Assembly: GCA_964549875.1 (NCBI GenBank)
Contig: CAZJVL010000001.1
Location: 1 to 28,343 of the forward strand
Length of the DNA stretch: 28,343 bases
DNA from: an uncultured Candidatus Saccharibacteria bacterium
GTDB taxonomy: Bacteria > Patescibacteriota > Minisyncoccia > UBA6257
Direction of reading: 5' to 3'
The notes under the pieces are model-generated. The model did not search any database. It had not been told where the DNA came from and saw only the letters and a list, made by a program, of their open reading frames with translations. Positions 21 through 28,293 of the stretch are shown one piece after another. Both the position numbers and the translations under genes were made by a program. Every line of letters starts with the position of its first letter. Position 1 is the first letter of the stretch.

Positions 21-110
21 TTCATAATTCATAATTCATAATTCATAATTCATAACACTTGATTCTTAATTCTAATTGTGGGTTTTGAGTTTTGAGATTT
101 GAGATTTGAG
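21..110. repeat. Heptamer tandem arrays: (TTCATAA)x5 at 21-55 and (T/A)TTTGAG x4 at 83-110
   Basis: Read directly from the sequence; lies immediately upstream of trmD. The same (TTCATAA)x5 occurs at 10646-10680. Confidence 0.95.
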
Positions 111-121
111 TTATTATTATC

Positions 122-802
122 ATGCGCTTTGATATTCTTACAATTTTTCCAGAAGTTTTCAAAAATTATTTTGATACATCCATTATTAAAAGAGCGCAAT
201 CAAAAAAGATAATAGAGATTTATATTCACAATCTTAGGGATTGGACGACTGATTCTCACCAAAGCGTTGATGACGCTCCTTATGGCGGCGGCAAGGGAAT
301 GATTTTTAAAGTAGAGCCGATTTTTAAGGCGGTGAAGGATTTAAAAAAAGGACAGAGCAAACAAGGCGCAAAATACCGCATTATCCTTTTCTCTCCTAAA
401 GGGAAAAAACTGAATCAATCACGGGTAAAAAAATTAACCCGATATAAAAGATTAATTTTGATTTGCCCTCGTTATGAAGGGGTAGACGAAAGAGTGGCAA
501 AATATATCGCCGATGAAGAGATTTCAATTGGCGACTATATCCTGACTGGAGGAGAGTTGCCGGCAATGGTTTTAGTTGATAGTATAACCCGTTTACTGCC
601 GGGGGTGATTAACAAAGAATCTTTATTGGAAGAATCTTTTAATATTAAAAATTTAGGCGAGTACCCCCAATATACTAGACCAGCAATTTTTTACCCTAAC
701 AAAAAAAACAAAAAGATAGCTTGGCGAGTTCCAAAGACCCTACTTTCTGGCAATCATAAGAAAATTCAGCAGTGGCAACAGAAGCATATGGCCAGTAATT
801 AG
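122..802 (+). CDS. trmD: tRNA (guanine-N1)-methyltransferase TrmD
   Basis: Motifs [56 protein letters not shown]. Confidence 0.98.
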
Positions 803-834
803 CATTCTGTAAATAGTATCCAAAATACAGAACT

Positions 835-1050
835 ATGATCATTCTTTCTTTTAAAGTAAAAAGACAGAAACATCAAATTCGCGTTGAAAGAGGGGAAGAT
901 TTGCTGCTTTCCCTTGACAAATTTTGTAAAAAGCATAAAATAGAAAAAGCAAGTATCAAAAATTGGCAGTTAAGTTATTATCAACAAAAAAGTATTATTT
1001 CCAAAAGAATTGCTCAATCTATTTTTGACGCTTTAAAAATTGCAGCCTAA
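835..1050 (+). CDS. Small basic hypothetical protein resembling an N-terminal fragment of TsaB/YeaZ
   Basis: 71-aa ORF co-oriented between trmD and rpoB. EDLLLSLDKFCKKHKI...SKRIAQSIFDAL recalls TsaB LLPxIDxLL...LRIG..AKAL, but the GPGSFTG motif is missing. Similarity judged by eye. Confidence 0.55.
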   Translation: MIILSFKVKRQKHQIRVERGEDLLLSLDKFCKKHKIEKASIKNWQLSYYQQKSIISKRIAQSIFDALKIAA

Positions 1051-1118
1051 TTCTAAATTTAGGATTATTTTTATTCCTCCTTTTTCTAATATTTTTTACG
1101 TTTAAGTAAGCTTTTTTA

Positions 1119-4100
1119 ATGATGAGCCAGCCAATAATAAAAAATTTTTCCCGTTATTCCCGGAAAATTTTAGAGCCCCCGCGTCTGACTGAATTTCAGT
1201 TGGATTCTTTCACCTGGTTTTTGGAACAAGGAATTAAAGAAGTTTTTGATGAGTTATTGCCAATAAAAGATTACACTGGCAAAGATTTAGAATTGGGGTT
1301 TGTTGATTACTATCTCGAGTCTCCAAAAATATCAGAAAATCAGGCAAAAGAAAAAGGATTAACTTATGATGCGGCTTTGAGGGTAAAGTTAAAATTGACG
1401 AATAAAAAATTAGGCGTTGTCAGAACAGAAGAGGGGATTTATTTCGGGGAAATTCCGATGATGACTCCACGAGGGACTTTTATTATCAATGGAGTTGAGA
1501 AAGTTGTTATCTCTCAAATTAATCGTTCGCCGGGAATATATTTTACTTCTTCCAAGTTGAAAGGGAGAAAGTTTTTTAATGCTAAATTAATTCCCAATCA
1601 TGGAGCTTGGTTGGAATTTGAAACTGATAATGACGGAGCTTTGGGCGTTAAAATAGATCGTAAAAGAAAAGTGGCCGTGACAACGCTTTTAAGAATTTTT
1701 GGTTTGGAAAATGATAAAGATATAAAGCAGGCATTTAAAGAAGAAGAAGAAAAATCGCCAGTAAAATATATTGAGAGTACTTTGAAAAAGGATTTGGCCT
1801 CAAATAAAGAAGAAGGTTATATCGAGGTTTATCGTCACTTACGGCCCGGAGAATTAGCTACCTTTGATAACGCTGCTGATTTAATTAACAATATGTTTTT
1901 TCGAAGAGATAGATATGATTTAGCTAAAGTTGGAAGATACAAAATCAATCAACGACTGGGGCTGAATGTTCCTTTTGATCAAAGAAGTTTAACTCAAGAA
2001 GATTTAGTGGCTATTATCAAGGAGATGATTCGCTTAAATAATGATGAGGAAGCATTGGAAGATGATATTGATCATTTAGGAAACCGGAGAGTGAAGGCAG
2101 TGGGGGAAATCTTAACTGAGAGATTCAGGGTAGGATTAATGAGGATGCGAAGAACTATTCAGGACAGAATGGCTATTTTAGATCCTGAAAATTTGACCGC
2201 GGGGCAGCTAATTAATCCCCATCAATTAGTTTCTGTTATCCGGGAATTTTTTAATGTTTCTCAGCTTTGCCAATTTATGGAGCAAATGAATATGCTTTCT
2301 GAGGTTGAGCACAAAAGAAGAGTTACTTGCATGGGGCCGGGTGGTTTAGTTAGGGAAAGAGCGGGATTAGATGTCAGGGATATTCATATAAGTCATTATG
2401 GACGTTTATGTCCTATTCAAACTCCTGAAGGACAAAATATAGGATTGGTCCTTTCTTTGGCTCTCTACGCCCGGTTAAACGAATTTGGCTTTATTGAAAC
2501 TCCATATATTAAAGTGAAAAATAATCAGATTACTGGAGAATTAATTTGGTTAGACGCTTTTGAAGAATTAAAATACAAAATCGCTCATAGCGCCGTTGAA
2601 ATTGATGAAAATGGGAGGATAAAAGAAAAGTGGATTGGTGCCAGGGTTAAGGGAGAACCAATGTTGGTTCAAAGTAAAGAAGTTGATTTAATGGATGTTT
2701 CCTGCCAACAGATTATCTCGGCGGCAGTTAGTTTAATTCCTTTCTTAGAGCATGATGAATCCAACAGAGCTCTTATGGGCGCTAATATGCAAAGGCAAGC
2801 AGTTCCTTGTGTTAGGGCGCAAGCACCTCTGGTAGCCACGGGTATTGAATCGAAGATCGCGCTTGAATCAGGTCAATGTTTAATTAGTGAAAGCGACGGG
2901 GTGGTTGAAGAAGTTGATGCCAGCCACATTGTAGTAAGAACTGATGATAAGGGTAAAAATAATAAAGTTGTTTATGAATTAATTAATTTCGGCCGCAGTA
3001 ATAAAAATAGTTGCTTGATGCAAAAACCAATAGTTAAGAAAGGAAACAGAATAAAAAAAGACGATATTTTGGCAGACGGAGCAGCTACTGAAAATGGCGT
3101 TTTAGCTCTGGGCCAAAATTTACTGGTTGCCTTTATGCCCTTTTTTGGCGCTAATTACGAAGATGCGGTAGTTATTTCAGAAAGAGTGTTAAAAAATGAT
3201 TATTTTACATCAGTTTATTTAGAGGAATTTATTTGTGATGTGATTGAGACTAAATTAGGTCCGGAAACAACAACACGAGATATTCCTAATGTTTCTGAAG
3301 AAAAATTAAAAAATTTAGATGAAGAAGGAATAGTTAGGATTGGGGCTGAAGTACGCGGCGGCGATATTTTAGTAGGTAAAATTTCTCCAAAAGGTAAAGC
3401 AGAATTAACTTCTGAAGAAAGATTGCTTCAGGCTATTTTTGGAGAACAGATGAAAGATATCAAGGATACATCTTTAATATTAGAACCCTCACGTCAAGGA
3501 CGAGTTGTGAGAATAAAAGTTCTTTCTCGTAAAGAAGGAGATAAGTTGAATATCGGCGTCATAAAAAGAATCAGCGTTGAAATTGCTGAATTGAGAAATG
3601 TAATGGTTGGCGATAAATTAGCCGGACGTCATGGAAACAAAGGAGTTATTTCGGTCATTGTTCCGGAAGAAGATATGCCTTATTTGGAAGACGGGACTCC
3701 GGTAGATGTAATTTTGAATCCTTTGGGTATTGGCAGTCGAATGAATTTGGGGCAAGTTTTTGAGAATCATCTGGGTTTGGCGGCAAAAAAGTTAGGTTAT
3801 CAGGCTATTAGCCCTTCTTTAGATGGCGCCACCGAAGAAGATATTAAACAAGAGTTAATTAAAGCCGGTCTGCCAGAGGATGGAAAAGTTGTCTTATATA
3901 ATGGAAAAACTGGAGAACCTTTTGATAAAAAAGTGGCTGTGGGAATGATGTATTTGATGAAACTAGAGCATATGGTAAAAGATAAGGTCCATATGCGGGC
4001 AATTGGGTCGTATTCTTTGATTACGCAACAGCCGCTGCAAGGAAGGGCGCATCATGGAGGCCAAAGATTTGGAGAAATGGAGGTTTGGGCTTTAGAAGGT

Positions 4101-4343
4101 TATGGTTCGGCTTATACTTTACAAGAAATGTTGACAATTAAATCAGACGATGTTTTCGGAAGAGGAGCGGCTTATGAGGCTATTATTAAAGGGGAAAAAA
4201 TAAAAAGCCCCAGTGTTCCAGCGTCTTTTAATGTTATTTTAAAAGAATTGCAAGCATTGGGTTTATCTGTGAATCTTATCGGAGTTAAAGAAAAAGAAGA
4301 AGAAGAGGAGAATAAAAGAGGAATTGAAGAAATAAGTAAATAA
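1119..4343 (+). CDS. rpoB: DNA-directed RNA polymerase subunit beta
   Basis: PMMTPRGTFIINGVEKV, HKRR..GPGGL, RALMGANMQRQAVP, GDKLAGRHGNKGV, GGQRFGEMEVWALE. Start is 1119 or 1122. Confidence 0.99.
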   Translation: MMSQPIIKNFSRYSRKILEPPRLTEFQLDSFTWFLEQGIKEVFDELLPIKDYTGKDLELGFVDYYLESPKISENQAKEKGLTYDAALRVKLKLTNKKLGVVRTEEGIYFGEIPMMTPRGTFIINGVEKVVISQINRSPGIYFTSSKLKGRKFFNAKLIPNHGAWLEFETDNDGALGVKIDRKRKVAVTTLLRIFGLENDKDIKQAFKEEEEKSPVKYIESTLKKDLASNKEEGYIEVYRHLRPGELATFDNAADLINNMFFRRDRYDLAKVGRYKINQRLGLNVPFDQRSLTQEDLVAIIKEMIRLNNDEEALEDDIDHLGNRRVKAVGEILTERFRVGLMRMRRTIQDRMAILDPENLTAGQLINPHQLVSVIREFFNVSQLCQFMEQMNMLSEVEHKRRVTCMGPGGLVRERAGLDVRDIHISHYGRLCPIQTPEGQNIGLVLSLALYARLNEFGFIETPYIKVKNNQITGELIWLDAFEELKYKIAHSAVEIDENGRIKEKWIGARVKGEPMLVQSKEVDLMDVSCQQIISAAVSLIPFLEHDESNRALMGANMQRQAVPCVRAQAPLVATGIESKIALESGQCLISESDGVVEEVDASHIVVRTDDKGKNNKVVYELINFGRSNKNSCLMQKPIVKKGNRIKKDDILADGAATENGVLALGQNLLVAFMPFFGANYEDAVVISERVLKNDYFTSVYLEEFICDVIETKLGPETTTRDIPNVSEEKLKNLDEEGIVRIGAEVRGGDILVGKISPKGKAELTSEERLLQAIFGEQMKDIKDTSLILEPSRQGRVVRIKVLSRKEGDKLNIGVIKRISVEIAELRNVMVGDKLAGRHGNKGVISVIVPEEDMPYLEDGTPVDVILNPLGIGSRMNLGQVFENHLGLAAKKLGYQAISPSLDGATEEDIKQELIKAGLPEDGKVVLYNGKTGEPFDKKVAVGMMYLMKLEHMVKDKVHMRAIGSYSLITQQPLQGRAHHGGQRFGEMEVWALEGYGSAYTLQEMLTIKSDDVFGRGAAYEAIIKGEKIKSPSVPASFNVILKELQALGLSVNLIGVKEKEEEEENKRGIEEISK

Positions 4344-4350
4344 ATAATTT

Positions 4351-7300
4351 ATGATTAAAGATACTGAGACAAAAATCAGTGATTTTGAGGCCTTGAGTTT
4401 AAAACTGGCTTCTCCAGAAGAGATTTTATCGTGGTCATATAACGAGAAGACAAAATCTTACGGGGAGGTTACTAAGGCCGAGACACTTAATTATCGCACT
4501 CAGAAACCGGAAAAAGAGGGTTTATTTTCCGAGCAAATTTTTGGGCCAGTCAAAGATTATGAATGTGCTTGCGGCAAATATCGCGGAGCTCATTACAAGG
4601 GGATCGTTTGCGACCGCTGTGGAGTAGAGGTAACCCGTTCTTTTGTGAGGCGCGAAAAGATGGGCCATATTAAATTAGCAACACCAGTGGCTCATATTTG
4701 GTTTTTACGAAGTGTCCCATCGCGAATCGGGTTAATTCTAAATATCCCAGTATTGCCCTTAGAGAAGGTTGTCTATTATAACAGTTATATTGTTACTTCG
4801 GTTGATGAAGAAGCTAAAAAAAGAGTCGCCGCAGAGATTGAATCAGAGTATCAGGCAAAATTAAAAACTTGGCCTCTCCAAAAAAAGAAAGAATTAGAAG
4901 AATCTAGAAGTCAAACAAGGGCAGAGCTGGAGGCAATTAAATTAAAAGCCATTTTTTCTGAAATTGATTATATCAGCTTATCAAAAAAATATGGTGAAGT
5001 TTTTACCGCAGAAACAGGAAGCGAACCGATAAGAAGGTTTCTGGAGCAAATAGATTTAGAGAAATTAGTAAAAGAATTAGAGGGGCAAATAGAGAAAAAA
5101 TCTAAAAATATCGATAAAAAGATTCTCGCTCGTTTAAAATTAGCGAGAGGGTTTTTGAAATCACAAACACGGCCAGAATGGATGTTTTTGACAGTGCTGC
5201 CTGTCTTGCCACCAGATTTAAGACCAATGGTTCAGTTGGACGGAGGAAAGTTTGCCACGTCTGATCTCAATGATCTTTATCGGCGGGTTATTAACCGTAA
5301 TGTTCGTTTGGTAAAGCTGATAGAGCTTAAAGCCCCAGAAGTGATTATCAAAAACGAGAAAAGAATGCTTCAAGAAGCAGTTGATGCTTTGATTGACAAT
5401 TCAATAAGGAAAACATCAGGAACAACTCCAATGCATTCATCTCAGCATCGTCCTTTACGGTCTTTGGCTGATATTTTACAAGGTAAACAAGGTCGTTTCC
5501 GCCAAAATCTTTTGGGAAAAAGAGTAGATTATTCAGGGCGTTCGGTAATTGTTATTGGCCCGCAATTAAAAATTGATGAATGCGGCATTCCAAAAAGAAT
5601 GGCTTTGGAATTATTTAAACCTTTTGTTGCCAGTGAATTAATTAAAAAAGAAATTGTTTTTAATCCCCGAGGCGCTAATCGTTTTATAGAAGAAGGCTCG
5701 GATATTGTTTGGGAGATATTAGAAAAAATAGTTAAAGATAAATATGTTTTATTAAATAGGGCGCCGACATTGCATCGTTTGAGCATTCAGGCATTCAAAC
5801 CAAAGTTAATTGAGGGTTTGGCGATTCAAATTCCAGCGTTGGTAACGCCTCCTTTTAATGCTGATTTTGATGGAGATCAAATGGCAGTTCACCTCCCTTT
5901 ATCCGAAGAAGCGCAGAGAGAGTGTGAAACAAGAATGATGTCTCATTTAGGATTATTGAAACCAGCTAATGGCGAGCCGGCAATGTTGCCCCGTCATGAA
6001 ATGGTTGCTGGTATTTATTGGCTGACAATGGAGAAAATTGAAGACGAAAATGAAAAGAAGCTGGATAAAAAGGAAAAGGTTTTTTCCAATGAGAGAGAGG
6101 CCTTGTTAGCATATGAATACAAAAAAATAGGGCTTCAGGAAACAATCAAAACACGGGTAGCTAAAGAAAATAATCAGTTAACGACAACGACAGTGGGGAG
6201 AATTATTTTCAACGAAGTTTTACCAGAAGATTTTCCTTTTTTCAATAAGCAATTGACAACCAAAGAAATAAAACAAATTACCAAAGAAATAATTCACCAT
6301 TATCGGGATTTTAAAAAGAGCGCCAAAATTTTAGATGCAATAAAAGATTTGGGTTTCTACTACGCAACTTTATCCGGTCTTTCTTGGGGGCTTACTGATT
6401 TAAAAATTCCCCCAGAGAAGCAGTCCATTTTAACCGAGGCCTCAAAAAAAGCAGAAGAAATAATAAATCAATATAAGGAAGGTTTTCTTACTGCTGAGGA
6501 AAAAAAGGTTTTAACGGAGACAGAATGGAGGCGTGCTGTAAGCCAATTATCAAATTTTATTCCAAACGCTTTGAAAAAGGATGACCCAGTTTATATTTTC
6601 TTTGATTCTGGCGCTAAAGGTAATTGGGGAGTGGCTGTTCAGATAATGGGAATGAAAGGGCTGGTGGTTAATCCGGCAGGCCGATTAATAGAGATGCCTA
6701 TTTTATCTTCTCATCAGGAAGGATTTAATGTTCTTGAATATTTTGCTGCTTCGCATGGTGGGAGAAAAGGATTAGCAGATACGGCGCTGAAAACTTCTTT
6801 TGCTGGTTACCTGACAAGAAGATTGGTAGATGTTGCCCAAGAGATTTTGGTTAAAGAAGAAGATTGCCGAAGTAAAGAGGGGCTTATTATAAATAAAAAG
6901 GAATGTGAAGCAGAAGGTGATAGTTTTGAAAAAAGAATTTTTGGAAGATTTATCGCTCAGGATATAGTTGATAAAAATGGAAAAATAATTCTGAAATCAG
7001 GGGAGCTGATTGATGAAGAAAATATTGAAAAAATATTAAATTCACAAGTGGAGTCAGTAGTTGTTCGCTCTCCTTTGACTTGCGGAACTTTAAATGGTGT
7101 CTGCCAAAAATGTTATGGCATTGATTTGGCTTGGAGGAAACCGATTGATTTAGGAGAAGCTGTTGGTGTTGTTGCTGCCCAATCTATTGGTGAACCGGGA
7201 ACGCAATTAACCTTAAGAACTTTTCATACCGGCGGCGTGGCTCAGGCAATTGATATTACTCAAGGATTACCGAGGGTAGAAGAGATTTTTGAAGCGCGAA

Positions 7301-7956
7301 TTCCAAAAGGAGAAGCGCCTTTGAGCGAGGTTGAGGGCACAGTTATCGATATCAAAAAAGCCAATCACCAAAAACATATTGTTATAAAATCAAAAGATAA
7401 AAAATCTTTAACTATTCAATACTCGGTCCCGGAGAAAGTCACTCTTTGGGTTAAAGAGGGGGATTTGGTAAAGAAAGGAGATCAACTTTGTGAAGGAAAT
7501 ATCAATTTAAAAAAACTTTTAAAAATTTCAGGGAGAGATGTCTGCCAGCAGTATATCTTGAAAGAAGTAAAGAAAGTATATAATATTGCCGGAGAAGATA
7601 TTAATGAGAAACATTTTGAAATTATAATCAAACAGATGTTTTCCCGGGTAAAAATAACATCCAAAGGAAATAGTGAATTTATTCCCGGAGAAATAGTTTC
7701 CAAGAGGGCTTTTCAAGAAGTGTCGCAAAATTTAAAAGATCATGGGAAAATTCCTCCCAAGGCAGAAGAAGTATTAATGGGTGTTAAAAATGTCGCCCTT
7801 AATTCAGAGAGCTTTTTATCAGCGGCTTCTTTCCAGGAAACCTCTCGGGTTCTCATCAGAGCAGCAATAGAAGGTCAAAAGGATTATTTGAAAGGGTTGA
7901 AAGAAAACGTCATTATTGGCAGATTGATTCCTGCTGGGACAGGGTTTAGAGAGTAA
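4351..7956 (+). CDS. rpoC: DNA-directed RNA polymerase subunit beta'
   Basis: Zn ribbon CACGK..CDRC, GRFRQNLLGKRVDYSGRS, catalytic NADFDGD, GEPGTQLTLRTFH, GLKENVIIGRLIPAGTG. Confidence 0.99.
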   Translation: MIKDTETKISDFEALSLKLASPEEILSWSYNEKTKSYGEVTKAETLNYRTQKPEKEGLFSEQIFGPVKDYECACGKYRGAHYKGIVCDRCGVEVTRSFVRREKMGHIKLATPVAHIWFLRSVPSRIGLILNIPVLPLEKVVYYNSYIVTSVDEEAKKRVAAEIESEYQAKLKTWPLQKKKELEESRSQTRAELEAIKLKAIFSEIDYISLSKKYGEVFTAETGSEPIRRFLEQIDLEKLVKELEGQIEKKSKNIDKKILARLKLARGFLKSQTRPEWMFLTVLPVLPPDLRPMVQLDGGKFATSDLNDLYRRVINRNVRLVKLIELKAPEVIIKNEKRMLQEAVDALIDNSIRKTSGTTPMHSSQHRPLRSLADILQGKQGRFRQNLLGKRVDYSGRSVIVIGPQLKIDECGIPKRMALELFKPFVASELIKKEIVFNPRGANRFIEEGSDIVWEILEKIVKDKYVLLNRAPTLHRLSIQAFKPKLIEGLAIQIPALVTPPFNADFDGDQMAVHLPLSEEAQRECETRMMSHLGLLKPANGEPAMLPRHEMVAGIYWLTMEKIEDENEKKLDKKEKVFSNEREALLAYEYKKIGLQETIKTRVAKENNQLTTTTVGRIIFNEVLPEDFPFFNKQLTTKEIKQITKEIIHHYRDFKKSAKILDAIKDLGFYYATLSGLSWGLTDLKIPPEKQSILTEASKKAEEIINQYKEGFLTAEEKKVLTETEWRRAVSQLSNFIPNALKKDDPVYIFFDSGAKGNWGVAVQIMGMKGLVVNPAGRLIEMPILSSHQEGFNVLEYFAASHGGRKGLADTALKTSFAGYLTRRLVDVAQEILVKEEDCRSKEGLIINKKECEAEGDSFEKRIFGRFIAQDIVDKNGKIILKSGELIDEENIEKILNSQVESVVVRSPLTCGTLNGVCQKCYGIDLAWRKPIDLGEAVGVVAAQSIGEPGTQLTLRTFHTGGVAQAIDITQGLPRVEEIFEARIPKGEAPLSEVEGTVIDIKKANHQKHIVIKSKDKKSLTIQYSVPEKVTLWVKEGDLVKKGDQLCEGNINLKKLLKISGRDVCQQYILKEVKKVYNIAGEDINEKHFEIIIKQMFSRVKITSKGNSEFIPGEIVSKRAFQEVSQNLKDHGKIPPKAEEVLMGVKNVALNSESFLSAASFQETSRVLIRAAIEGQKDYLKGLKENVIIGRLIPAGTGFRE

Positions 7957-7968
7957 GGCGCGGAGGAG

Positions 7969-8158: not shown

Positions 8159-8165
8159 TTAATTG

Positions 8166-8183: not shown

Positions 8184-8194
8184 ACAGTATAATA

Positions 8195-8893: not shown

Positions 8894-8903
8894 AATGAGT
8901 TTA

Positions 8904-10470: not shown

Positions 10471-10471
10471 A

Positions 10472-19481: not shown

Positions 19482-20721
19482 AAATATAAAAAATAAAGAG
19501 AATAAAGAGAATAAAGAGAATAAAGAGCATAAAGAGAAAGTTTTTAAAAAAGTTAAGCCGGCGAAAAGAGTAAAATCGCAAAGGAAACAAAAACCGAAAT
19601 CAAAAGTAGAGAAAAAAGAAAGGAGAGAATTTTTAAATAAGAATATCTGTATAAAAATAATCGGCGTTGGCGGGGCTGGTTGTAATGTAGTTAATAGAAT
19701 GAAGGAGAAAAGACTTGAGGGAGTGGATTTTATTGCTATCAATACAGACATTCAAGGGCTGCAGCATACAAAATCTGATTTTAAAATTCAAATTGGAAAA
19801 GAATCTTGCCGCGGATTGGGAGCAGGAATGGATCCATTAAAAGGAAAAGAAGCAGCAGAAGAAAATATTGAAGAAATTAATCAAGTTTTACAAGGCGCTG
19901 ATATGATTTTTCTTGCTTGTGGATTAGGCGGCGGGACAGGATCTGGCGCTTCGCCGATAATTGCCAATTTAGCTAAGCAAGCCGGAGCTTTAGTTGTTGG
20001 TGTCATTACTAAGCCCTTTGCTTTTGAAGGGGAAAAAAGAACAGAGATTGCTGAAGAGGCTTGGCAAAAACTTTTTAATGAAGTTGACGCTTTGGTGACG
20101 ATTCCCAATGATAGGATTTTTAACGTTATTAGTGAAGAAACGTCAATTTTAGACGCTTTTGGCAAAGTTGATGATATTTTGCGGCAGGGAGTAGAGGCGA
20201 TAGTTAATTTGATTTCCTATCCCGGTTTAATTAATTTAGATTTTGCTAATATCCGGACAATTCTTACCGAAGCCGGAAGCGCTTTATTAGGCATCGGAGT
20301 TTATAAAGGGCAAGATAGAGCTAAAAAAGCGGCAGAGTTGGCGATTTCCTCGCCTCTTTTAGATATTTCAATTGAAGGAGCAAAAAGAGTCCTTTTTAAT
20401 GTTGCCGGGACAAAAGATATGTCTTTAGTAGAAGTCCATAATGCCGCCCGGGTAATTACCCAATCAATAGCTAAAGATGGGCAAGTAATCTTTGGCACCA
20501 GTTTTGATAATGATCTTCACCAAGGGGAAATTAAAGTTACGGTTATTGCCGGGGGTTTTGGAGAAGAACAGCGAGAATTGAGCCCGGCACTGCCTTTAGA
20601 AATTAAGGTTCCTATTAATAAAGAGCCAGATGGAATAGAGAAAGAACAAGAAGAACAAAAAGAAGAATTTGAAATTCCTGCTTTTTTGAGGAGGAAAAAG
20701 AAAAAAGAAAACGAAGAATAA
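19462..20721 (+). CDS. ftsZ: Cell division protein FtsZ with a ~60-aa Lys-rich N-terminal extension
   Basis: IKIIGVGGAGCN, AINTD, GLGAGMDP, GGGTGSG, PFAFEG, INLDFA, C-terminal EIPAFLRRK. Confidence 0.98.
   Translation: MEKKNKKNIKNKENKENKENKEHKEKVFKKVKPAKRVKSQRKQKPKSKVEKKERREFLNKNICIKIIGVGGAGCNVVNRMKEKRLEGVDFIAINTDIQGLQHTKSDFKIQIGKESCRGLGAGMDPLKGKEAAEENIEEINQVLQGADMIFLACGLGGGTGSGASPIIANLAKQAGALVVGVITKPFAFEGEKRTEIAEEAWQKLFNEVDALVTIPNDRIFNVISEETSILDAFGKVDDILRQGVEAIVNLISYPGLINLDFANIRTILTEAGSALLGIGVYKGQDRAKKAAELAISSPLLDISIEGAKRVLFNVAGTKDMSLVEVHNAARVITQSIAKDGQVIFGTSFDNDLHQGEIKVTVIAGGFGEEQRELSPALPLEIKVPINKEPDGIEKEQEEQKEEFEIPAFLRRKKKKENEE
19492..19536 (+). repeat. In-frame 9-bp repeat (AATAAAGAG)x4 plus CATAAAGAG, encoding (NKE)4-HKE
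   Basis: Read directly within the ftsZ 5' end. Confidence 0.95.
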
Positions 20722-20798
20722 AAATCTGTATACTGTATAAATCAATTTTTTAATTTACAATTTACAATTTTCAATCAATTTTCAATTTTTAATTTACA
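20722..20798. repeat. TCTGTAT/ACTGTAT module plus CAATTT array; inverted copy of the htrA upstream modules
   Basis: 20752-20788 is the exact reverse complement of 9129-9165; CTGTATAAATCAA (20733-20745) equals 10494-10506. Confidence 0.93.
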
Positions 20799-20803
20799 CG
20801 GTA

Positions 20804-20925
20804 ACAAGAAACAAATTACAAGATACAAGATACAAACAAGATACAAGAAACAAAATACAAACTGTTTGTAATTTGTAATTTGTAATTTGTAATTCATTTG
20901 GAATTTGAAATTTGTAATTTGTAAT
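20804..20925. repeat. Self-contained inverted heptamer array (long imperfect hairpin)
   Basis: Left arm (ACAAxxx)x4-ACAA-x3 at 20804-20856; centre ACAAAC-T-GTTTGT at 20857-20869; right arm (TTGTAAT)x4-TCAT-x4 at 20866-20925. Confidence 0.9.
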
Positions 20926-20967
20926 TTAATACTCATTTTTCATTTTGATTTTTAAATTTATTTTTTT

Positions 20968-23900
20968 ATGTCTCCTCAAAAAAAATTTCATAACCATTTA
21001 AAAGAGGTCAGAAAAAGAACTGGCGAAATAGTGCCTTTTGAGAAGAAAAAAATAGAAGAAGCTATTTATAAAGCTTTAACAGCGACAGATGAAGGGGGGA
21101 AAACCTTGTCTCGGGAGTTATCAAATCGAGTTATTAGGATTCTCAATAGAAGGTTTAAAAAGGGAGAGATCCCTTCAGTTGAGGAAATACAAGATATTGT
21201 TGAAGAGGTTTTAATTTTGGAAAATTTAATTGAAACTTCAAAGGCGTATATCTTATATCGGGAGCAGAGAAGAAAATTAAGAGAAAGCCGTATTGTTTCT
21301 GAAGAAGCAGTAAGTTTAGTGGATGAATATCTAAACGAGAAAGATTGGCAGGTGAAAGAAAATAGCAATATGGCTTTTTCTTTGCAAGGATTGAATCATT
21401 ATGTCTCTGCTTATGTGGCTAAAAAATATTGGTTAAGAAAGATCTATCCCAAAGAGGTAAAAGAAGCAGTAGAGAGAGGGGATTTTCATATTCATAATTT
21501 AGATATTTTAGCCACTTATTGCTGCGGCTGGGATTTATACGACCTTCTTGCAAAAGGGTTTGGAGGGGTTTTTGGAAAGATTCAATCAAAACCACCAAAA
21601 CATTTTGGTTCTGCTTTGGGACAGGTGGTTAATTTTTTTTATACCCTTCAAGGAGAAGGAGCTGGAGCTCAGGCCTTTTCTAACTTTGACACTCTTTTAA
21701 GTCCGTTTATTCGTTATGATAATTTAACGTTAAAAGAAGTAAAACAATCTTTACAGGAATTTCTTTTTAACTGCAATGTTCCAACTCGGGTAGGGTTCCA
21801 ATGTATTTCACAGGACACAGAAATATTAACTCCCAGTGGTTGGAAAAATTATCAGGAAGTTAAAAAAGGAGATACAATTACCACTTTTAATTTAAAAACC
21901 AAAGCATTAGAAAATAAAAAAGTTAGTTATGTATTTAAAAAGAGATATCAAGGAATAATGTATTCTTTGTGTAATCGAATACAGAATCAACTTATTTCTC
22001 CAAAACATCGTGTAGTAAGAAGAAAATTTTATGCTGAAGAATATAGTTTAGAGCCAATAGAAGAAGTAATGAAATTAAAATCTCCCTTTATAGTTCCTAT
22101 TGCTGGGGAAAATATAAAACCAGATGCAAAACTAAGCGATGAACAAATCAGATTAATGGCTTGGATTATTAGCGAAGGAACAATTGAAAAAAAATCAAAA
22201 TATCGCAGTTCCTACAGAGTTTCTATATATCAATCTAAAGCTAAAAACAGAAAAAATTATAAACAGATAGTTGATTTATTAAAATATTTTAAATTTAAAT
22301 ATTTAGAATATAAAACAGCGGCTTTAGGCGATGATGTTTGTAGAATAAGGTTAAACGCTGAGAGTTCTAAAATTATTCATCAATGGTTTGGTTCAAAGGA
22401 AAATGTCCATTTTATTCCAGAAATTTTAACCAATCTTAGCCAGAGACAGTCAAGATTATTTTTAGAGACATATCTTCGCGGAGATGGTTCTGAAGAGTGC
22501 AAGATATCCACTACAGAAATGAATTTATTAGACGGATTGCAAAGAATAATTATTAACGCCGGATATGGCTTTACTGTTTTAGAAAGAAAACCCACTATTG
22601 GCAAAAAAAACATATATGTTTTAAGAATTATTAAACATTCAGAAACTTATATCCAAAAAATAAAAAAAATTAATTATAAAGGAGTAATATGGTCAGTTCA
22701 TACGGAGAATGAAACAGTTATTGCCCGACGCCAAGGTAAAGTTTTTATCACCGGCAATACTCCTTTTGAGAATATTACACTAGATTTAAAAGTTCCAAAT
22801 CATTTCAGAGACCTGCCGGTTATAATTGGCGGTCAACCACAAAAAGAGACCTATAAAGATTTTCAAAAGGAAATGGATATTCTCAATCAGGCGCTTTGCG
22901 AAGTTTATACTGATGGCGATGCTAGCGGCAGAGTGTTTACATTTCCGATTCCCACTTATAACATTACTAAAGATTTTGATTGGAGGGATCCTAACTATGA
23001 CGGGATTTGGAAGATGACCGCGAAATATGGCCTTGCCTATTTTTCAAATTACATTAATTCTGATATGACGCCTGAAGACGCAAGGTCAATGTGTTGCCGG
23101 CTTCGCCTTGATAATCGTGAGCTTTATAAACGCGGAGGCGGTTTGTTTGGGGCTAATCCGCTAACTGGCTGTTATGATGAAAAAACTGAAGTTTTAACTA
23201 AAAACGGTTGGAAATTTTTTAGAGATTTAAACAAAAACGATGAATTATTCACTTTAACCGAAGACAATAGAATAGAGTTACACAAACCAATTAAGGTTTT
23301 TCAATATGATTACGAGGGAGAGATGTATCATTTCCAAACAAGGTCTTTAGATTTATTTGTGACGCCAAATCATAGAATGGTAGTTGATCAAGTAATAAGC
23401 GAAAAAAGAAAGTTTGTTGAGGCTAAAAATTTTGATTTTAATAATCACCGCATTCCCAAGCAGTCCCTATGGGAAGGGGAAGAAAAAGAGTGGTTTATTT
23501 TGCCACCTATAGAATTTACTAAATACGGAAGACAGGGGAGAACTCTTTATCAAGTAGTAAGAAATGCTTTGAAAATTAAAATGGATTATTGGTTAAAGTT
23601 CTTTGGTATTTGGTTAGCAGAAGGTTGTATAGATAATGAGAAAATCGCTAAAAGACACGGCTATCGAGTAATTATTACTCAAGTAAATAAGCAAAATCGA
23701 GAAGAAATTAAAGAAGTTCTGGATAAGTTACCATTTCATTATTATATTGAGAGAGATAGCCACTTTATTATTTGTAATAAGCAGCTTTGGAGCTATTTGA
23801 AACAATTTGGAAATAGATACGTAAAATTTATTCCTCCAGAGATTAAAGAATTAAACAAAAGGCAATTGAAGATTCTTTTTGATTGGTTGGTAAAGGGGGA

Positions 23901-25086
23901 TGGTCATATAAGAAAAACAACTGGCCAGATAAATTATTGGACTACCTCTAAAAAATTAGCTAATGACCTCCAAGAAATAATTCTAAAATTAGGATGGTTA
24001 GGAACCTTAACCGAACAGAAAAACAAAGTTAGTAAAATTAAAGGAAGGGAAATTAAAGCTAGTACTCTTTATAACATTGGTGTTCAGAAAGCACTTCATT
24101 ACCGCTTACGGCCATCTAACCTTAGAAAGGTTTATTATAAAGGGAAAGTTTATTGTTGCGAAGTCTTAAACCACACCTTATTTGTCAGAAGAAATGGTAA
24201 GGTAAGTTGGTGTGGTAATTCTATTGGCGTCGTTACTATTAATTTACCCCGTTTGGCATATTTATCAAAGACCAAAAAAGAATTTTTCCAACAATTAACC
24301 CATATAATGGGGTTAGCGAAAACAAGTTTAGAAGTAAAAAGAAAAGTTTTGGAAGATTGGACAGAAAAAGGGCTTTATCCTTATGCCAAGTATTATCTTG
24401 CCAATGTTAAGAAGATGAGAGGAAGTTATTGGGGAAATCATTTTTCTACTATCGGGTTAATAGGGATGAATGAGGCGCTGCTTAATTTTTTGGGTATAGA
24501 TATAGGCAATAAAAAAGGCGTGGCTTTTGCTTCTGAGGTCCTTGATTTTATGCGAGAGAATCTTGTCAAGTATCAAGAAGAAACCGGGAATTTATATAAT
24601 TTAGAGGCAACGCCAGCTGAAGGCACCTCTTATCGTCTTGCCCTTAAGGATAAGCAGGACTTTCCTGATATTATTACTGCCGGCGAAAAAGAACCTTATT
24701 ATACGAATTCCACCCAATTGCCGGTAAATTATACTGATGATTTATTTGAAGCTTTAAAACTACAAGACGAACTCCAAACTAAATATTCAGGAGGGACTGT
24801 TTTCCATGCTTTTTTGGGTGAAGCAATTTCAGATCCTGAGGCAGTAAAATCCTTGATTAAACTTGTTTTTGAAAAGTTCCGTCTTCCTTATTTTACCTTG
24901 ACGCCAACTTTTTCTATCTGCCCGACTCACGGCTATATCGCTGGAGAGCATTTTATTTGCCCCAAATGCACTATTGAGCAGCCCTGTGAGGTTTATTCGC
25001 GAGTAGTGGGTTACCTCAGGCCGGTTCAGCAGTGGCATAAAGGAAAACAAGAAGAATTTAGCCAGCGGAAAACATTTAAAATATAA
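20968..25086 (+). CDS. nrdD: Anaerobic (class III) ribonucleoside-triphosphate reductase with ATP-cone; precursor with two inteins (703 aa predicted after splicing)
   Basis: ATP-cone, GDFHIHNL, YCCGW, SMCCRL, NLEATPAEG, TLTPTFSICPTHGY, glycyl-radical loop YSRVVGYLRP. 1372-319-350=703 aa. Confidence 0.96.
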   Translation: MSPQKKFHNHLKEVRKRTGEIVPFEKKKIEEAIYKALTATDEGGKTLSRELSNRVIRILNRRFKKGEIPSVEEIQDIVEEVLILENLIETSKAYILYREQRRKLRESRIVSEEAVSLVDEYLNEKDWQVKENSNMAFSLQGLNHYVSAYVAKKYWLRKIYPKEVKEAVERGDFHIHNLDILATYCCGWDLYDLLAKGFGGVFGKIQSKPPKHFGSALGQVVNFFYTLQGEGAGAQAFSNFDTLLSPFIRYDNLTLKEVKQSLQEFLFNCNVPTRVGFQCISQDTEILTPSGWKNYQEVKKGDTITTFNLKTKALENKKVSYVFKKRYQGIMYSLCNRIQNQLISPKHRVVRRKFYAEEYSLEPIEEVMKLKSPFIVPIAGENIKPDAKLSDEQIRLMAWIISEGTIEKKSKYRSSYRVSIYQSKAKNRKNYKQIVDLLKYFKFKYLEYKTAALGDDVCRIRLNAESSKIIHQWFGSKENVHFIPEILTNLSQRQSRLFLETYLRGDGSEECKISTTEMNLLDGLQRIIINAGYGFTVLERKPTIGKKNIYVLRIIKHSETYIQKIKKINYKGVIWSVHTENETVIARRQGKVFITGNTPFENITLDLKVPNHFRDLPVIIGGQPQKETYKDFQKEMDILNQALCEVYTDGDASGRVFTFPIPTYNITKDFDWRDPNYDGIWKMTAKYGLAYFSNYINSDMTPEDARSMCCRLRLDNRELYKRGGGLFGANPLTGCYDEKTEVLTKNGWKFFRDLNKNDELFTLTEDNRIELHKPIKVFQYDYEGEMYHFQTRSLDLFVTPNHRMVVDQVISEKRKFVEAKNFDFNNHRIPKQSLWEGEEKEWFILPPIEFTKYGRQGRTLYQVVRNALKIKMDYWLKFFGIWLAEGCIDNEKIAKRHGYRVIITQVNKQNREEIKEVLDKLPFHYYIERDSHFIICNKQLWSYLKQFGNRYVKFIPPEIKELNKRQLKILFDWLVKGDGHIRKTTGQINYWTTSKKLANDLQEIILKLGWLGTLTEQKNKVSKIKGREIKASTLYNIGVQKALHYRLRPSNLRKVYYKGKVYCCEVLNHTLFVRRNGKVSWCGNSIGVVTINLPRLAYLSKTKKEFFQQLTHIMGLAKTSLEVKRKVLEDWTEKGLYPYAKYYLANVKKMRGSYWGNHFSTIGLIGMNEALLNFLGIDIGNKKGVAFASEVLDFMRENLVKYQEETGNLYNLEATPAEGTSYRLALKDKQDFPDIITAGEKEPYYTNSTQLPVNYTDDLFEALKLQDELQTKYSGGTVFHAFLGEAISDPEAVKSLIKLVFEKFRLPYFTLTPTFSICPTHGYIAGEHFICPKCTIEQPCEVYSRVVGYLRPVQQWHKGKQEEFSQRKTFKI
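21802..22758 (+). mobile_element. Intein 1 (319 aa, NrdD residues 279-597) with a LAGLIDADG-type homing endonuclease domain
   Basis: Junctions RVGFQ|CISQDTEILTPSGWK and RRQGKVFITGN|TPFENITLDL; block B SPKH; endonuclease-like AWIISEG and TYLRGDG. Confidence 0.93.
23170..24219 (+). mobile_element. Intein 2 (350 aa, NrdD residues 735-1084) with a LAGLIDADG-type homing endonuclease domain
   Basis: Junctions ANPLTG|CYDEKTEVLTKNGWK and RRNGKVSWCGN|SIGVVTINLPRL; block B TPNH; endonuclease-like GIWLAEG and WLVKGDG. Confidence 0.93.
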
Positions 25087-25837: not shown

Positions 25838-27262
25838 ATGACGCTCTCTTTCTCTAGAGTTTTCCGTCAATGTGGGGCGTCTTTTTTAATAGGCATAATT
25901 TTGTCCCGTTATTTTTCTTTTTCTTTTTGGCTGGTCTTAATTATCAGTTTACTTGTTTATCTCTTATTTTTGAGACCGCGATTGTCTTCTTGTTCGCGAA
26001 AACAGCGATACGCTATTTTGCTTTTGATATGGCTAAGTTTTTTGTTAGGGCAATATCGTTATTTCTCTTTTAGGGACAAATTAAATCAGTCAGCTATTAA
26101 AGAGGAAAAACAAATTGAGATTGAAGCTCCTATTATAGCTGAGCCGATTTTAAAAACCAATTATCAAAGGATTCTTATTCCTCATATCGTTATTAATACC
26201 GAAAGATTTCCGGTTTATCAATATGGAGATATCTTAAAAATTAAAGGTAAAATTCAACCTTTACAGGAGTTTCGCTCTTATAGTTCCATTTTAGTTTCTG
26301 CTAAAATGAGTTACCCGAAGATAGAATTAGTCGCTTCAGGCAGGTTTTCTTTTAAAAAAATTGCGCTTTCTTTTAAAAACAAAATAATCCATTTACTTCA
26401 GAAAGTTATTCCTGAACCTCAGGTAAGCCTTTTGGCAAGTATTATGTTTGGCGGTAAGCATAATTTAACGGTTTCTTTGGAAGAAGAAATTCAAAAATCA
26501 GGCGTTTCTCATATCATTGTTGCTTCGGGGTTGCATTTATCTATTATTACTCAAATGCTTTTCGCTCTTTTGGGTGTTTTTTGCTTGGGAAATCTTTTAA
26601 ATTTTATCCTTTCGGGATTGTTTATATTAGGATTTTCTTTTATGGCTGGTTTAACCCCATCTATTATTCGGGCGGCAATAATGGCTTTTTTACTGGTTTT
26701 GTCCCGTTTTAATTTCCGTCTTTATAATTCTTTTAATGCTTTGCTTTTGGCAGGATTAATTATGGTTTGGTTTAATCCTTTTCTGCTTTTTCTGGATTTA
26801 GGCTTTCAACTTTCCTTTTTAGCCACAGCCGGCATATTATTGTTTTATCCTTTGTGGAATCGCGCTCCTTTTTGGCAGCAAGATTTTTTTCATAATTGGG
26901 CAGCGCAGATTTTTAAACAAACGACGCTTTGTTGCTTTTCAGCGATGGCTTTAGTTGTTCCTTGGCTTACCTTCAAAACTCAAAATGTTTCTTTGATTGC
27001 TCCTTTAACTAATGTTTTAGTTATTCCTTTTGTTTCTTTAATAATGGTCGGGGGATTTATAACTGCCCTTTTTTCATTTTTAATTTATCCTTTGGGATTA
27101 TTTTTCGGATTTTGGCTTAACTTTATGATGACTTATCTTCTCAAAATAATCTCTTATTGTGCCGCCTTGCCTGGGGCAGAGATTTATATTCCTTCTCTTT
27201 TGCGTTGGTTGATTGTCCCTTATTATATTTTTTTGTTTTTCTACATCCGTAAAAGAACTTGA
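25838..27262 (+). CDS. comEC: ComEC/Rec2 competence membrane channel (no fused beta-lactamase domain)
   Basis: SGVSHIIVASGLH, TPSIIRAAIM, LGFQLSFLATAGI, APLTNVLVIP; many TM segments. Confidence 0.9.
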   Translation: MTLSFSRVFRQCGASFLIGIILSRYFSFSFWLVLIISLLVYLLFLRPRLSSCSRKQRYAILLLIWLSFLLGQYRYFSFRDKLNQSAIKEEKQIEIEAPIIAEPILKTNYQRILIPHIVINTERFPVYQYGDILKIKGKIQPLQEFRSYSSILVSAKMSYPKIELVASGRFSFKKIALSFKNKIIHLLQKVIPEPQVSLLASIMFGGKHNLTVSLEEEIQKSGVSHIIVASGLHLSIITQMLFALLGVFCLGNLLNFILSGLFILGFSFMAGLTPSIIRAAIMAFLLVLSRFNFRLYNSFNALLLAGLIMVWFNPFLLFLDLGFQLSFLATAGILLFYPLWNRAPFWQQDFFHNWAAQIFKQTTLCCFSAMALVVPWLTFKTQNVSLIAPLTNVLVIPFVSLIMVGGFITALFSFLIYPLGLFFGFWLNFMMTYLLKIISYCAALPGAEIYIPSLLRWLIVPYYIFLFFYIRKRT

Positions 27263-27333
27263 AATATGGAACTTGAAACTTTCAATTTTTTAAACAATTC
27301 GTATAATTTGCATAATAAGATTGCAACAACTCT

Positions 27334-28155
27334 ATGAACAAACTTCGCAAATATCTTTTAATAATTCTTATCTGTGTCAATTTTTTCACTTTTTGGATTA
27401 TTTTTGATTATCTCTTTTTGGAAAAAGGAGAGGTAAGTTTTCTTGATGTTGGCCAAGGAGACGCTGAGCTAATTCAAACGCGGTCAGGAAATATCTTAAT
27501 AGATGCGGGCCCTGATATAAGCGTTATCTCTGCTTTGGATGCGTCTCTTCCTTTTTTTGACCGCACTATTGACTTATTTATTCTTTCCCATCCTAACAAA
27601 GACCATTTTAATGGTTTGTTTGAGGTGCTTAGAAGATTTAATGTCCGAGCAGTAATGCTTAATAACTTATCTTATCCTGATTCTTTGTATCAAAAATTGC
27701 TTCAAGAATTAGCAAAGAAAGATATTTTAGTTATTCAGGGGATAAAGGGGACGAAAGCTATTTTGGAAAATGACAATCTTTTTGTGCTTTATCCCAAGGC
27801 GATGGTTTCTTCAGCTGAAGATCCTAATAAATTTAGTTCGGTAGTTTCTTTAGATCTTGGGGGAAATTATTTTCTTTTTCTTGGTGATATCAGCGCTGTT
27901 CAAGAAAAAGAAATTTTGCCCTTATTGTCGGAAAATAACAAATTAAGGATTTTAAAAGTGGCTCATCATGGTTCCTCTTATTCTTCTTCTTGGCAGTTTC
28001 TTGAAGCATTTAAACCCCATTTTGCAGTGATTGAGGTTGGCAATAATAGTTATGGCCATCCTCATGCCGATACTCTAAACCGTTTGACGCAGATAGGAGC
28101 TAAAATTTTGCGCACCGATTTAGAAGGAACAATCCGATTTAAGGAAAAAAAATAA
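27334..28155 (+). CDS. ComEC-type metallo-beta-lactamase-fold nuclease, stand-alone with its own N-terminal TM
   Basis: FLDVGQGDA, LIDAG, LSHPNKDH, FLGDI, LKVAHHGS, VGNNSYGHP, RTDLEG. Confidence 0.9.
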   Translation: MNKLRKYLLIILICVNFFTFWIIFDYLFLEKGEVSFLDVGQGDAELIQTRSGNILIDAGPDISVISALDASLPFFDRTIDLFILSHPNKDHFNGLFEVLRRFNVRAVMLNNLSYPDSLYQKLLQELAKKDILVIQGIKGTKAILENDNLFVLYPKAMVSSAEDPNKFSSVVSLDLGGNYFLFLGDISAVQEKEILPLLSENNKLRILKVAHHGSSYSSSWQFLEAFKPHFAVIEVGNNSYGHPHADTLNRLTQIGAKILRTDLEGTIRFKEKK

Positions 28156-28174
28156 TTTTCATCTAATCGGCAAT

Positions 28175-28203
28175 TTGCTTTAATTAGTTTTTTATCATAC
28201 AAT
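28175..28203 (+). promoter_or_regulatory. Sigma70-type promoter TTGCTT-N17-TACAAT
   Basis: -35 at 28175-28180, 17-nt spacer, -10 at 28198-28203; same -35 hexamer as the lepB candidate. Confidence 0.55.
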
Positions 28204-28210
28204 ATCATTA

Positions 28211-28293
28211 CTTAAACCTTTAAACCCTTAAACCTTTATTTAAACTTTTAAACTTTTATACTTTTAAACCTTTATTTATTTAAACCTTTAAAC
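28211..28293. repeat. Octamer array (consensus [C/T/A]TTTAAAC) with 4-nt CTTT/ATTT interruptions
   Basis: About nine units read directly between the promoter and the ATG at 28306. Confidence 0.9.

Follow-up and report, generated by a model that had tools for sequence, protein, structure and literature searches.

Tandem arrays of heptamers such as CCCCAGT, TTGGTCA, and CAACAGT, the short tandemly repeated repetitive (STRR) sequences, occur in cyanobacteria. Arrays of G-rich heptamers were described for Xanthomonas (GGGAATC) and Nostoc (GGGGAYT) in a study that also summarized the STRR sequences of Calothrix and reported a general excess of heptamer repeats in bacteria (Rehm et al., 2015; PMC4692102). 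Intergenic arrays of TAACTGA and other heptamers were found in the Beggiatoaceae, cyanobacteria, and Bacteroidetes (MacGregor, 2015; PMC4679880); they are located just upstream of start codons, combine several heptamers side by side, and form near-identical assemblages at several loci. In that study the spacers of close relatives were shorter and free of repeats, strains differed by 7-nt indels, contigs ended in the repeats, and the function of the arrays was unknown, with a role as translational regulator being proposed. In the 23S rRNA of Coxiella, an intervening sequence (IVS) with an open reading frame (ORF) for an S23p four-helix-bundle protein contains (GACAGAT)x3–4, the number of units varying among strains, and is cleaved by RNase III at the first repeat (Warrier et al., 2016; PMC4990558). 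Here, intergenic heptamer arrays are described from a 28.3-kb stretch of DNA (28,343 nt, in the following called the window) of a bacterium of the candidate phyla radiation (CPR), whose long spacers contain a composite repeat with up to seven modules in a fixed order. A literature search found no publication tying CPR bacteria to heptamer arrays. Such arrays are already known from cyanobacteria, Beggiatoaceae, Bacteroidetes, and Xanthomonas, and it is the occurrence in a CPR phylum and the clearer anatomy that are new.

With moderate confidence, the long spacers of the window are read here as copies of a single composite repeat that is non-coding, specific to the lineage, present in high copy number, and selfish or neutral. 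Eight copies were oriented and tokenized, four of them in or at the window, one on contig L050 (4 kb to the right of the window), and three on L151, a separate contig from the same landfill sample. The linear order starts with A (TCTGTAT), the junction AAATYAA, B (CAATTTN), C (ACAAGAW), the junction AAACTGTTTG, and D (TAATTTG), and continues with E (TTAGGAT), F (TTCATAA/TTCTTAA/TTCTAAA), TGTGG, G (GWTTTGA), a short AT-rich run, and an ATG. Every copy is a subset of modules A–G, and the order is unchanged in all eight. Several copies have non-repetitive junctions and an irregular 11-mer within module B in common, and three share an irregular 37-mer (AATTTACAATTTACAATTTTCAATCAATTTTCAATTT) within the same module. 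The shared order, junctions, and irregular units show descent from a common template instead of independent slippage, and thus block-wise copying between intergenic sites. Each copy extends to the next start codon, on the other side reaching the stop codon of the preceding gene or a conserved promoter. The element is polar, its ends (A on one side, G and the AT-rich run on the other) not being mutually inverted; six of the copies face the gene downstream and the other two have the reverse orientation, a bias that is not significant. The copies in or at the window are the following:

1–121, forward strand: composite copy 1, located upstream of trmD and represented by its 3' part, as the contig begins inside the element; F (TTCATAA)x5 at 21–55, TTCTTAA/TTCTAAT at 63–76, G (GWTTTGA)x4 at 82–109, then GTTATTATTATC and the ATG at 122.
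8894–9243, reverse strand: composite copy 2, reversed, in the uppS–htrA spacer, recognized by Tandem Repeats Finder (TRF), complementarity, and module reading; on the plus strand, E' at 8930–8943, D' (CAAATTA)n at 8945–8990, the junction CAAATAGTTT, a GC core, B' (AAATTGN)n at 9121–9173, and A' (ATACAGN)x7 at 9178–9226.
10471–10735, forward strand: composite copy 3, in the htrA–clpB spacer; A (TCTGTAT)x4 at 10472–10499, a GC core, B at 10617–10630, F (TTCATAA/TTCTTAA/TTCTAAA)x10 at 10639–10708, and a G-like tail reaching the ATG (10736).
20722–20967, forward strand: composite copy 4, in the ftsZ–nrdD spacer; A x2 at 20725–20738, B at 20751–20796, C (ACAAGAW)n at 20804–20856, the junction AAACTGTTTG, D (TAATTTG)n at 20869–20921, and an AT-rich tail reaching the ATG (20968).

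The full copy 1 (A x5–B–F–G, approximately 270 nt) is present in L002, L003, and L004.

The arrays were detected by TRF, by a lag-7 self-match test, and by direct reading of the spacers. TRF reported arrays of period 7 at 20–77, 82–112, 8944–8995, 9122–9172, 9178–9228, 10472–10499, 10637–10709, 20752–20798, 20803–20861, and 20865–20927. The self-match test assigned 306 nt to period-7 tracts, exclusively in spacers, and 0 nt at periods 4–6 and 10–12; no such tract was found in 26.3 kb (26,300 nt) of coding sequence or in 300 dinucleotide-preserving shuffles of each spacer. Period-7 coverage of the four heptamer spacers amounted to 87, 128, 110, and 97 nt. An earlier note on this DNA had described five long spacers as heptamer modules reused in both orientations and in different combinations, and a sixth as palindromic. 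Four of the five indeed have period 7 in both TRF and the lag-7 test, whereas the spacer 28156–28305 gives a lag-8 but no lag-7 signal and is built from an 8-nt unit. The reuse in both orientations is evident from pairs that are 86–94% complementary over 35–58 nt (9122–9170 and 20747–20795, 49 nt, 92%; 8921–8978 and 20863–20920, 58 nt, 86%; 9171–9205 and 10472–10506, 35 nt, 94%), and the sixth spacer does hold a long hairpin, but a free combination of modules is contradicted by the single order kept in the eight copies. The same note had asked whether the arrays might be as frequent in shuffled sequence, confined to this contig, or unsupported by spanning reads; they are absent from the shuffles, further array copies were found on L050, on L151, and in four sequencing runs, and the arrays recur in more than eight independent assemblies. 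Rfam contains no family matching the arrays, the GC cores, or the hairpin at 7957–8194. A CRISPR array, which needs repeats of 23–47 nt with unique spacers, was ruled out, as the units here are 7–8 nt long and follow each other head-to-tail without spacers.

Orthologous spacers, whose comparison the earlier note had proposed, were inspected in three syntenic genomes (including L042 and L045) with HtrA proteins 83, 80, and 73% identical to the one encoded here and with conserved gene order. They turned out to be short and array-free: the uppS–htrA spacer measures 65–69 nt and lacks arrays in the relatives (350 nt here), the htrA–clpB spacer 8–33 nt (265 nt here), the KH–trmD spacer 59 nt (403 nt here), and the rpoC–uppS spacer 1 nt in L042 (238 nt here). 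Approximately 55 kb of the relatives' sequence contains at most one short AT-rich tract; small seeds are (GAATACA)x2–3 after smc in L042 and (TAATTTT)x4 in the htrA–clpB spacer of L045. The last two htrA codons deviate from those of the relatives exactly where the A array starts. By comparison with these genomes, the composite family is lineage-specific. That close relatives lack it beside these genes speaks against an essential regulatory role, and the genome-wide structural or protein-binding code that the earlier note had considered is not borne out.

The spacers are highly reproducible among assemblies. Those between uppS and htrA and between htrA and clpB are base-for-base alike in eight contigs from differing samples, centers, and assemblers, and composite copy 2 is identical in seven of eight other assemblies, the exception being L003 with 18 additional nt in D' and 14 nt fewer in A'. 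Strain differences in the arrays consist of whole units only, such as three or four TCTGTAT and three or five TTCATAA; module A of copy 3 has three or four units depending on the assembly, and three runs contain a variant with a 7-nt deletion at 10472. This whole-unit variation is the pattern expected of replication slippage. When contigs or Logan unitigs of four runs (landfill, oil-field, groundwater, and digester) were mapped on the window, the depth of array k-mers was 40–150 times that of single-copy sequence, with similar ratios across the habitats; word depth rose from 93 to 14,194, from 132 to 15,785, from 35 to 4,192, and from 94 to 11,166, and the k-mers of copy 4 (20722–20967) reached 80–120 times the single-copy depth. 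Joints to other module combinations have a depth exactly equal to that of single-copy sequence in the respective run and therefore represent paralogous loci in the same genome. From the depth, a genome can roughly be estimated to contain tens to a few hundred arrays. Contigs tend to break off in arrays, and the window itself starts and ends in them.

Besides the composite copies, the following features were recognized:

7957–8194, no strand: GC-rich long palindrome in the rpoC–uppS spacer; hairpin of -88.4 kcal/mol, z -5.5.
9018–9118, reverse strand: nested GC-rich palindromic core inside copy 2, with the ends CTGTCAT.../...ATGACAG.
10514–10607, forward strand: nested GC-rich palindromic core inside copy 3, a long hairpin of -44.9 kcal/mol, z -5.1.
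9178–10499, forward strand: inverted heptamer bracket around htrA, (TACAGAA)x7 upstream and (TTCTGTA)x4 downstream.
28156–28305, forward strand: spacer with a separate octamer family, unit TTTAAACC/T, (TTTAAACY)n at 28212–28297, TRF period 8.
L002 568–616 (upstream of window position 1), L042 1332–1390, and L045 1940–2003: trmD promoter-like site with hairpin.

Some of the composite copies have secondarily received GC-rich palindromes as insertions. A core of approximately 100 nt is present in both htrA-flanking copies, where the two cores are inverted partners (29 nt, 93%), and at the equivalent internal position in one L151 copy, and the same D–B junction without a core exists at another locus of the genome (joint 9000 to 9120, single-copy depth). 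The palindrome at 7957–8194 belongs to a repeat family distinct from the heptamer composite. It is absent from the 1-nt spacer of L042, and the same site of L044 (8857–9229) carries it in inverted orientation. A sister copy lies inside an octamer (TTTAAACC)n array in L050 and L051 and is absent from L048 (L050 4800–4990 compared to L048 7540–7610), which is the only true filled/empty polymorphism that was found. The outer stems in this family diverge in sequence among copies and yet remain complementary. By these features the GC-rich palindromes look like elements of the miniature inverted-repeat transposable element (MITE) type that insert into arrays. The octamer array of the window terminates in TTTAAACTTTTTTATTACT, followed by the ATG of the next gene, which is of the aspartyl/asparaginyl-tRNA synthetase type; a second octamer locus with a near-identical 3' junction lies just upstream of an L28-like gene (L048 7566–7606). 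To the right of the window, past the tRNA synthetase gene, this octamer array is preceded by a G+C-rich, apparently structured non-coding element of approximately 170 nt (L048 7383–7560, GGGTCTTACCGGATTAAGGAACGAG...GCAGGTAAGGCCCCC) with no Rfam match at E <= 0.01, and a tRNA follows 600 nt further on.

Modules C and D pair with each other, as do E and F, which gives the fuller copies a long imperfect hairpin fold: -63.7 kcal/mol (z -4.9) for L151 6060–6335 and -41.6 kcal/mol (z -3.0) for the C/D arrays at 20722–20967. No folding was obtained for the trmD copy (z -0.2), in which C, D, and E are missing. A strand asymmetry of folding as an RNA-level sign was not detected, both strands folding about equally relative to shuffles, and therefore folding cannot tell RNA from DNA. 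A search of the arrays revealed no terminator-like sites. Promoter-like sites within most composites were not above shuffles, the exception being the htrA region (15 compared to 7.8 ± 2.9); arrays of at least five TTCATAA units yield the promoter-like site TTCATA-17-CATAAT. Orientation of (TCTGTAT)n relative to co-directional genes was unbiased (10 versus 12) in 36 metagenome loci with called neighbors, and three tiny metatranscriptomes from one study containing the organism gave no match to the window. Upstream of trmD, a promoter-like TTGACA-18-TATTAT, overlapping a 16-bp hairpin with a T run, is conserved in this species and the three relatives; in the latter the ATG of trmD follows it directly, and here composite copy 1 intervenes. 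From this position between the conserved promoter and the ATG, copy 1 should be transcribed as a 5' leader of trmD. The promoter/hairpin itself could be an attenuator or a small RNA.

The htrA bracket is formed by the reversed copy 2 upstream and the forward copy 3 downstream, with 94% complementarity over 35 nt. The earlier note had mentioned similar brackets around genes of four-helix-bundle (TIGR02436) proteins, and this link proved real: inverted heptamer arrays enclose all eight TIGR02436 genes that were examined, and the htrA bracket has the same polarity. The flank complementarity score was 29 for htrA, 10–36 for the eight TIGR02436 genes, and 5–8 for ten control genes, and the complementary length was 32 nt (31 matches), 13–45 nt, and 5–11 nt, respectively. 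Two of the eight came from a metagenome scan for three TCTGTAT-type units ((CTGTATN)3), which returned at least 120 contigs of 26–67% G+C with arrays that were usually intergenic and often beside other CTG/CAG-containing heptamers; one of these cassettes (L124) is bracketed by TACAGAA/TTCTGTA, the same heptamer pair as htrA. The six further members, picked solely for lying on long contigs, are all located between (CAGTGGT)n and (ACCACTG)n arrays that start at the stop codon of the preceding gene and continue to the ATG of the following one. The cassettes are co-directional inside operons, such as between the genes of a response regulator and dnaK, cheA and cheR, rnc and lplA, and fabH and an AMP-binding enzyme. 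At loci L270–L282, the heptamer arrays supply the final codons and the stop of the upstream gene (e.g., ...CAGTGGTCAGTGA) and abut the next ATG. The contigs of many TIGR02436 members are very short, which is to be expected if assemblies break at the flanks of these genes. An iterated four-helix profile drew in peptides translated from arrays ('...NTEYRIQNTEYRIQ...') and was replaced by a clean profile of 120 proteins. Most arrays among the metagenome matches listed have no TIGR02436 gene nearby.

Modular intergenic repeats with a variable internal tandem unit are also represented by BOX in Streptococcus pneumoniae and the mycobacterial interspersed repetitive units (MIRU), both of which occur at approximately 100 sites and are co-transcribed with their neighbors; neither is known to have a mobilizer. 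They resemble the composite in being modular, dispersed, and intergenic, but their units are 40–100 nt instead of 7 nt long and unrelated in sequence. MITEs, repetitive extragenic palindromic (REP) sequences, and Correia elements are small, non-coding, dispersed, hairpin-forming elements that insert between genes, and Correia transcripts are substrates of RNase III. The nested GC-rich cores are MITE-like in having inverted ends and a related element with presence/absence polymorphism, whereas the heptamer composite is polar, not palindromic, and lacks terminal inverted repeats and a target duplication detectable at the gene boundaries. With the IVS elements of the S23p family (TIGR02436, PF05635, bAvd-like), the window shares inverted heptamer arrays as a stem (the htrA pair, C/D, and E/F) and a strain-variable unit number; outside rRNA, the S23p cassettes likewise span stop codon to next ATG inside operons. 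In contrast to these cassettes, the majority of modules here form direct arrays that lack a cargo gene, and no four-helix gene was detected in the window or in approximately 44 kb of this genome.

Closest in placement are the arrays of MacGregor (2015), which agree with those described here also in the mixing of heptamers, the repeat-free relatives, the 7-nt indels, and the contig breaks. They differ in that the host here is a CPR bacterium with AT-rich units, and the fixed order of seven modules, the inverted partner arrays, and the approximately 100-fold copy depth are documented here. The TAACTGA system as such was rejected, as the window contains no TAACTGA array and placement alone is alike. 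The STRR sequences and the arrays of Rehm et al. (2015) are similarly intergenic, occupy hundreds of loci, vary in unit number, and sometimes form inverted pairs, but the units of the latter are G-rich and capable of forming quadruplexes, STRR sequences and host clade are different, and no modular order was reported for them. The analogy to cyanobacterial STRR arrays drawn in the earlier note therefore holds in kind, as intergenic heptamer arrays, but not strictly, because host and unit sequences differ and one of its five modules is an octamer. The arrays of the window fit the broader class of heptamer arrays in having a 7-nt unit (except at 28212–28297), an intergenic location at many loci, and 7-nt steps between strains. 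In the cultured Bacteroidota member Chryseobacterium taihuense, the nuoN–nuoM spacer (L028 7137–7290) holds (GAGATTT)n, the unit of module G, followed by other 7-nt arrays. The junction pattern TGTATNCTGTATAAATYAA, searched in one genome per species, gave 33 single matches in unrelated taxa, none of them with arrays; they were attributed to chance, the species itself being absent from that set.

A modular non-coding repeat that burst within the lineage and was block-copied between intergenic sites would explain these observations, with the arrays subsequently slipping in unit number. As the copies span stop codon or promoter to start codon, transcription probably runs through them, making them part of leader or inter-cistronic RNA, and they may be tolerated because they are free of terminators and resemble the AT-rich upstream regions without Shine-Dalgarno sequences that are native to the lineage. 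Partner arrays (C/D, E/F, and A'/A around htrA) would form long duplexes matching the brackets of S23p/TIGR02436 genes, and this likeness suggests that paired arrays are substrates of RNase III, for which processing as in Coxiella is plausible. As close relatives manage to express these genes in its absence, the repeat is regarded as selfish or neutral and not as required. With lower probability, the composite may be a cargo-less derivative of four-helix-bundle cassettes. A broader version of this idea, according to which inverted heptamer arrays are the ends of a widespread class of elements whose full form carries an Avd-like four-helix gene (that of the '23S rRNA intervening sequence protein'), is speculative and rather improbable. 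In that case the elements would insert exactly between a stop and the next start inside operons and be excised from the transcript by RNase III, the window would reflect a burst of approximately 100 cargo-less derivatives in a streamlined CPR genome, and the STRR, Beggiatoa, and Bacteroidetes arrays would be relics or non-autonomous copies.

Several findings weigh against the interpretation of the spacers as a selfish or neutral composite repeat. For the composite itself, neither a presence/absence polymorphism nor terminal inverted repeats nor a duplication of the target site were found; all assemblies of the species carry the copies, and empty sites were seen only in the relatives, so that insertion is deduced solely by comparison with genomes at 73–83% protein identity. 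No mobilizer was identified either. The window encodes neither a transposase-like gene nor a REP-associated tyrosine transposase (RAYT, TnpA-REP), in line with the earlier note, which had seen no mobilizer in it; of that note's proposal of a dispersed selfish element mobilized in trans, the dispersed family stands, with eight copies of shared order and irregular junctions, whereas the search for signs of mobilization in trans yielded no mobilizer and, for the composite, no terminal inverted repeat, no target duplication, and no empty-site polymorphism. The orientation of six of eight copies toward the downstream gene and the abutting of arrays on start codons fit a role in expression as well as they fit tolerance. 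The copy number deduced from contig depth is rough, since word depth is inflated by perfect arrays and may include contributions of other community members. The profile of 120 members detected no four-helix-bundle gene in the window or approximately 44 kb of this genome, and among the at least 120 loci with (CTGTATN)3 arrays only two TIGR02436 genes appeared in the matches listed. In viral contigs, arrays were also detected for control heptamers of matched composition, with 17, 9, and 20 matches compared to 47 for TCTGTAT-type units, a 2–5 times lower frequency. The sharing of TCTGTAT across phyla is thus weak evidence of common descent and is not relied upon as a sign of horizontal spread.

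Among the rival explanations, functional cis-regulation ranks highest but is itself unlikely. The arrays would then be protein-binding sites (of the S1, Csp, or KH type) or leaders tuning translation or transcription, as was proposed for the TAACTGA arrays of the Beggiatoaceae (PMC4679880), whose placement is the same (MacGregor, 2015). Such a role could account for arrays that reach start codons with near-identical 3' junctions, for six of eight composites and both octamer arrays facing the downstream gene, and for the promoter-like TTCATA-17-CATAAT in (TTCATAA)n of five or more units. However, the same genes are array-free in the syntenic relatives, the flanked genes are unrelated housekeeping genes, and unit number varies among strains. 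Neither the non-significant 6:2 orientation bias with its two reversed copies nor the 10 versus 12 split of the 36 metagenome loci favors it, and in most composites promoter-like sites do not exceed those of shuffles. A clearly lower probability is given to the growth of each array in place by slippage from an AT-rich spacer, without copying between loci. The general excess of bacterial heptamers (PMC4692102), the proto-arrays in L045 ((TAATTTT)x4) and L042 ((GAATACA)x2–3), the arrays of arbitrary heptamers in viral contigs, and the whole-unit strain variation are all in line with such growth. It would nevertheless have to produce, in eight copies, the same order of up to seven modules with identical junctions and an irregular 11-mer in B, as well as the approximately 100-fold depth of module words and the single-copy joints to other combinations; as the sole cause it is refuted by the shared junctions.

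The contingency (phase or rheostat) locus model, in which gain or loss of units alters promoter geometry or leader length and thereby expression within the population, is marginally less probable than slippage in place. Heptanucleotide promoter repeats in Haemophilus reportedly behave in this way, unit number does vary between co-existing strains, and the promoter-like site arises only with five or more TTCATAA units, of which strains have three or five. The neighbors are, however, core housekeeping genes and not surface or restriction genes, and approximately 100 copies in a small genome far exceed any known contingency set. An artefact of assembly or binning, with collapsed repeats or chimeric joins, ranks last and is very improbable: contigs often terminate inside arrays, as does the window at both ends, but identical spacers were obtained in at least eight contigs from different samples, centers, and assemblers, and Logan unitigs of four runs cross the junctions at single-copy depth.

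Across the window, mostly co-directional housekeeping genes are found, including trmD, rpoB, a single full-length rpoC, uppS, htrA, clpB, pth, an LCP transferase gene, lepB, hisS, rpsU, ybeY, ftsA, ftsZ, nrdD (with intein), nrdG, and a split comEC. The G+C content is 35%, a tRNA search of the window found none, and the remaining long gaps are occupied by small genes, namely a conserved 71-aa ORF and rpsU. The nearest HtrA homologs carry the names Candidatus Pacebacteria/Paceibacterota and Minisyncoccia, i.e., CPR bacteria, and by its gene content and homologs the host is assigned to the Candidatus Paceibacterota. A cyanobacterium was excluded because rpoC is undivided and ftsA and nrdDG are present. 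Landfills, oil fields, groundwater, digesters, and sludge are the sources of 20 public runs with near-identical sequence. At 19374–19475, the ftsA stop and the ftsZ start are covered by a perfect tandem duplication of 51 bp (2.1 copies, 100% identical), which lengthens the ftsA–ftsZ spacer to 66 nt compared to 13–25 nt in relatives; its depth is approximately twice single-copy in four runs. At 19474–19538, an in-frame 9-nt tandem repeat (AATAAAGAG)x7 at the ftsZ 5' end gives rise to a repetitive N-terminal extension. NrdD (20968–25086) has 1372 aa owing to its intein, of which the N-terminal splicing motif is present; the identical product in L047 has a LAGLIDADG_3 match, and the intein is the sole nuclease-type mobile element of the window. 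The comEC gene (25838–28155) is divided into two ORFs of 474 and 273 aa that are 71 nt apart, the first part being called with 406 aa in other strains. A 226-aa ORF at 13354–14034 without NCBIfam or Pfam family match overlaps the 3' end of pth by 110 nt on the opposite strand, where relatives have only an ORF of 36–64 aa.

CPR bacteria serve as models of genome streamlining, yet this genome spends 120–400 nt per spacer at approximately 100 sites on repeats that its close relatives lack. Repeat bursts hence occur even in sub-megabase genomes, and they explain the short contigs in assemblies of such genomes. A fourth or fifth phylum is added to the unexplained class of intergenic heptamer arrays, and the class gains some anatomy, with modules in a fixed order, arrays that have inverted partners, and palindromes nested inside. 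The brackets of the TIGR02436 genes and the RNase III cut in Coxiella make the nature of both STRR-type arrays and IVS elements directly testable.

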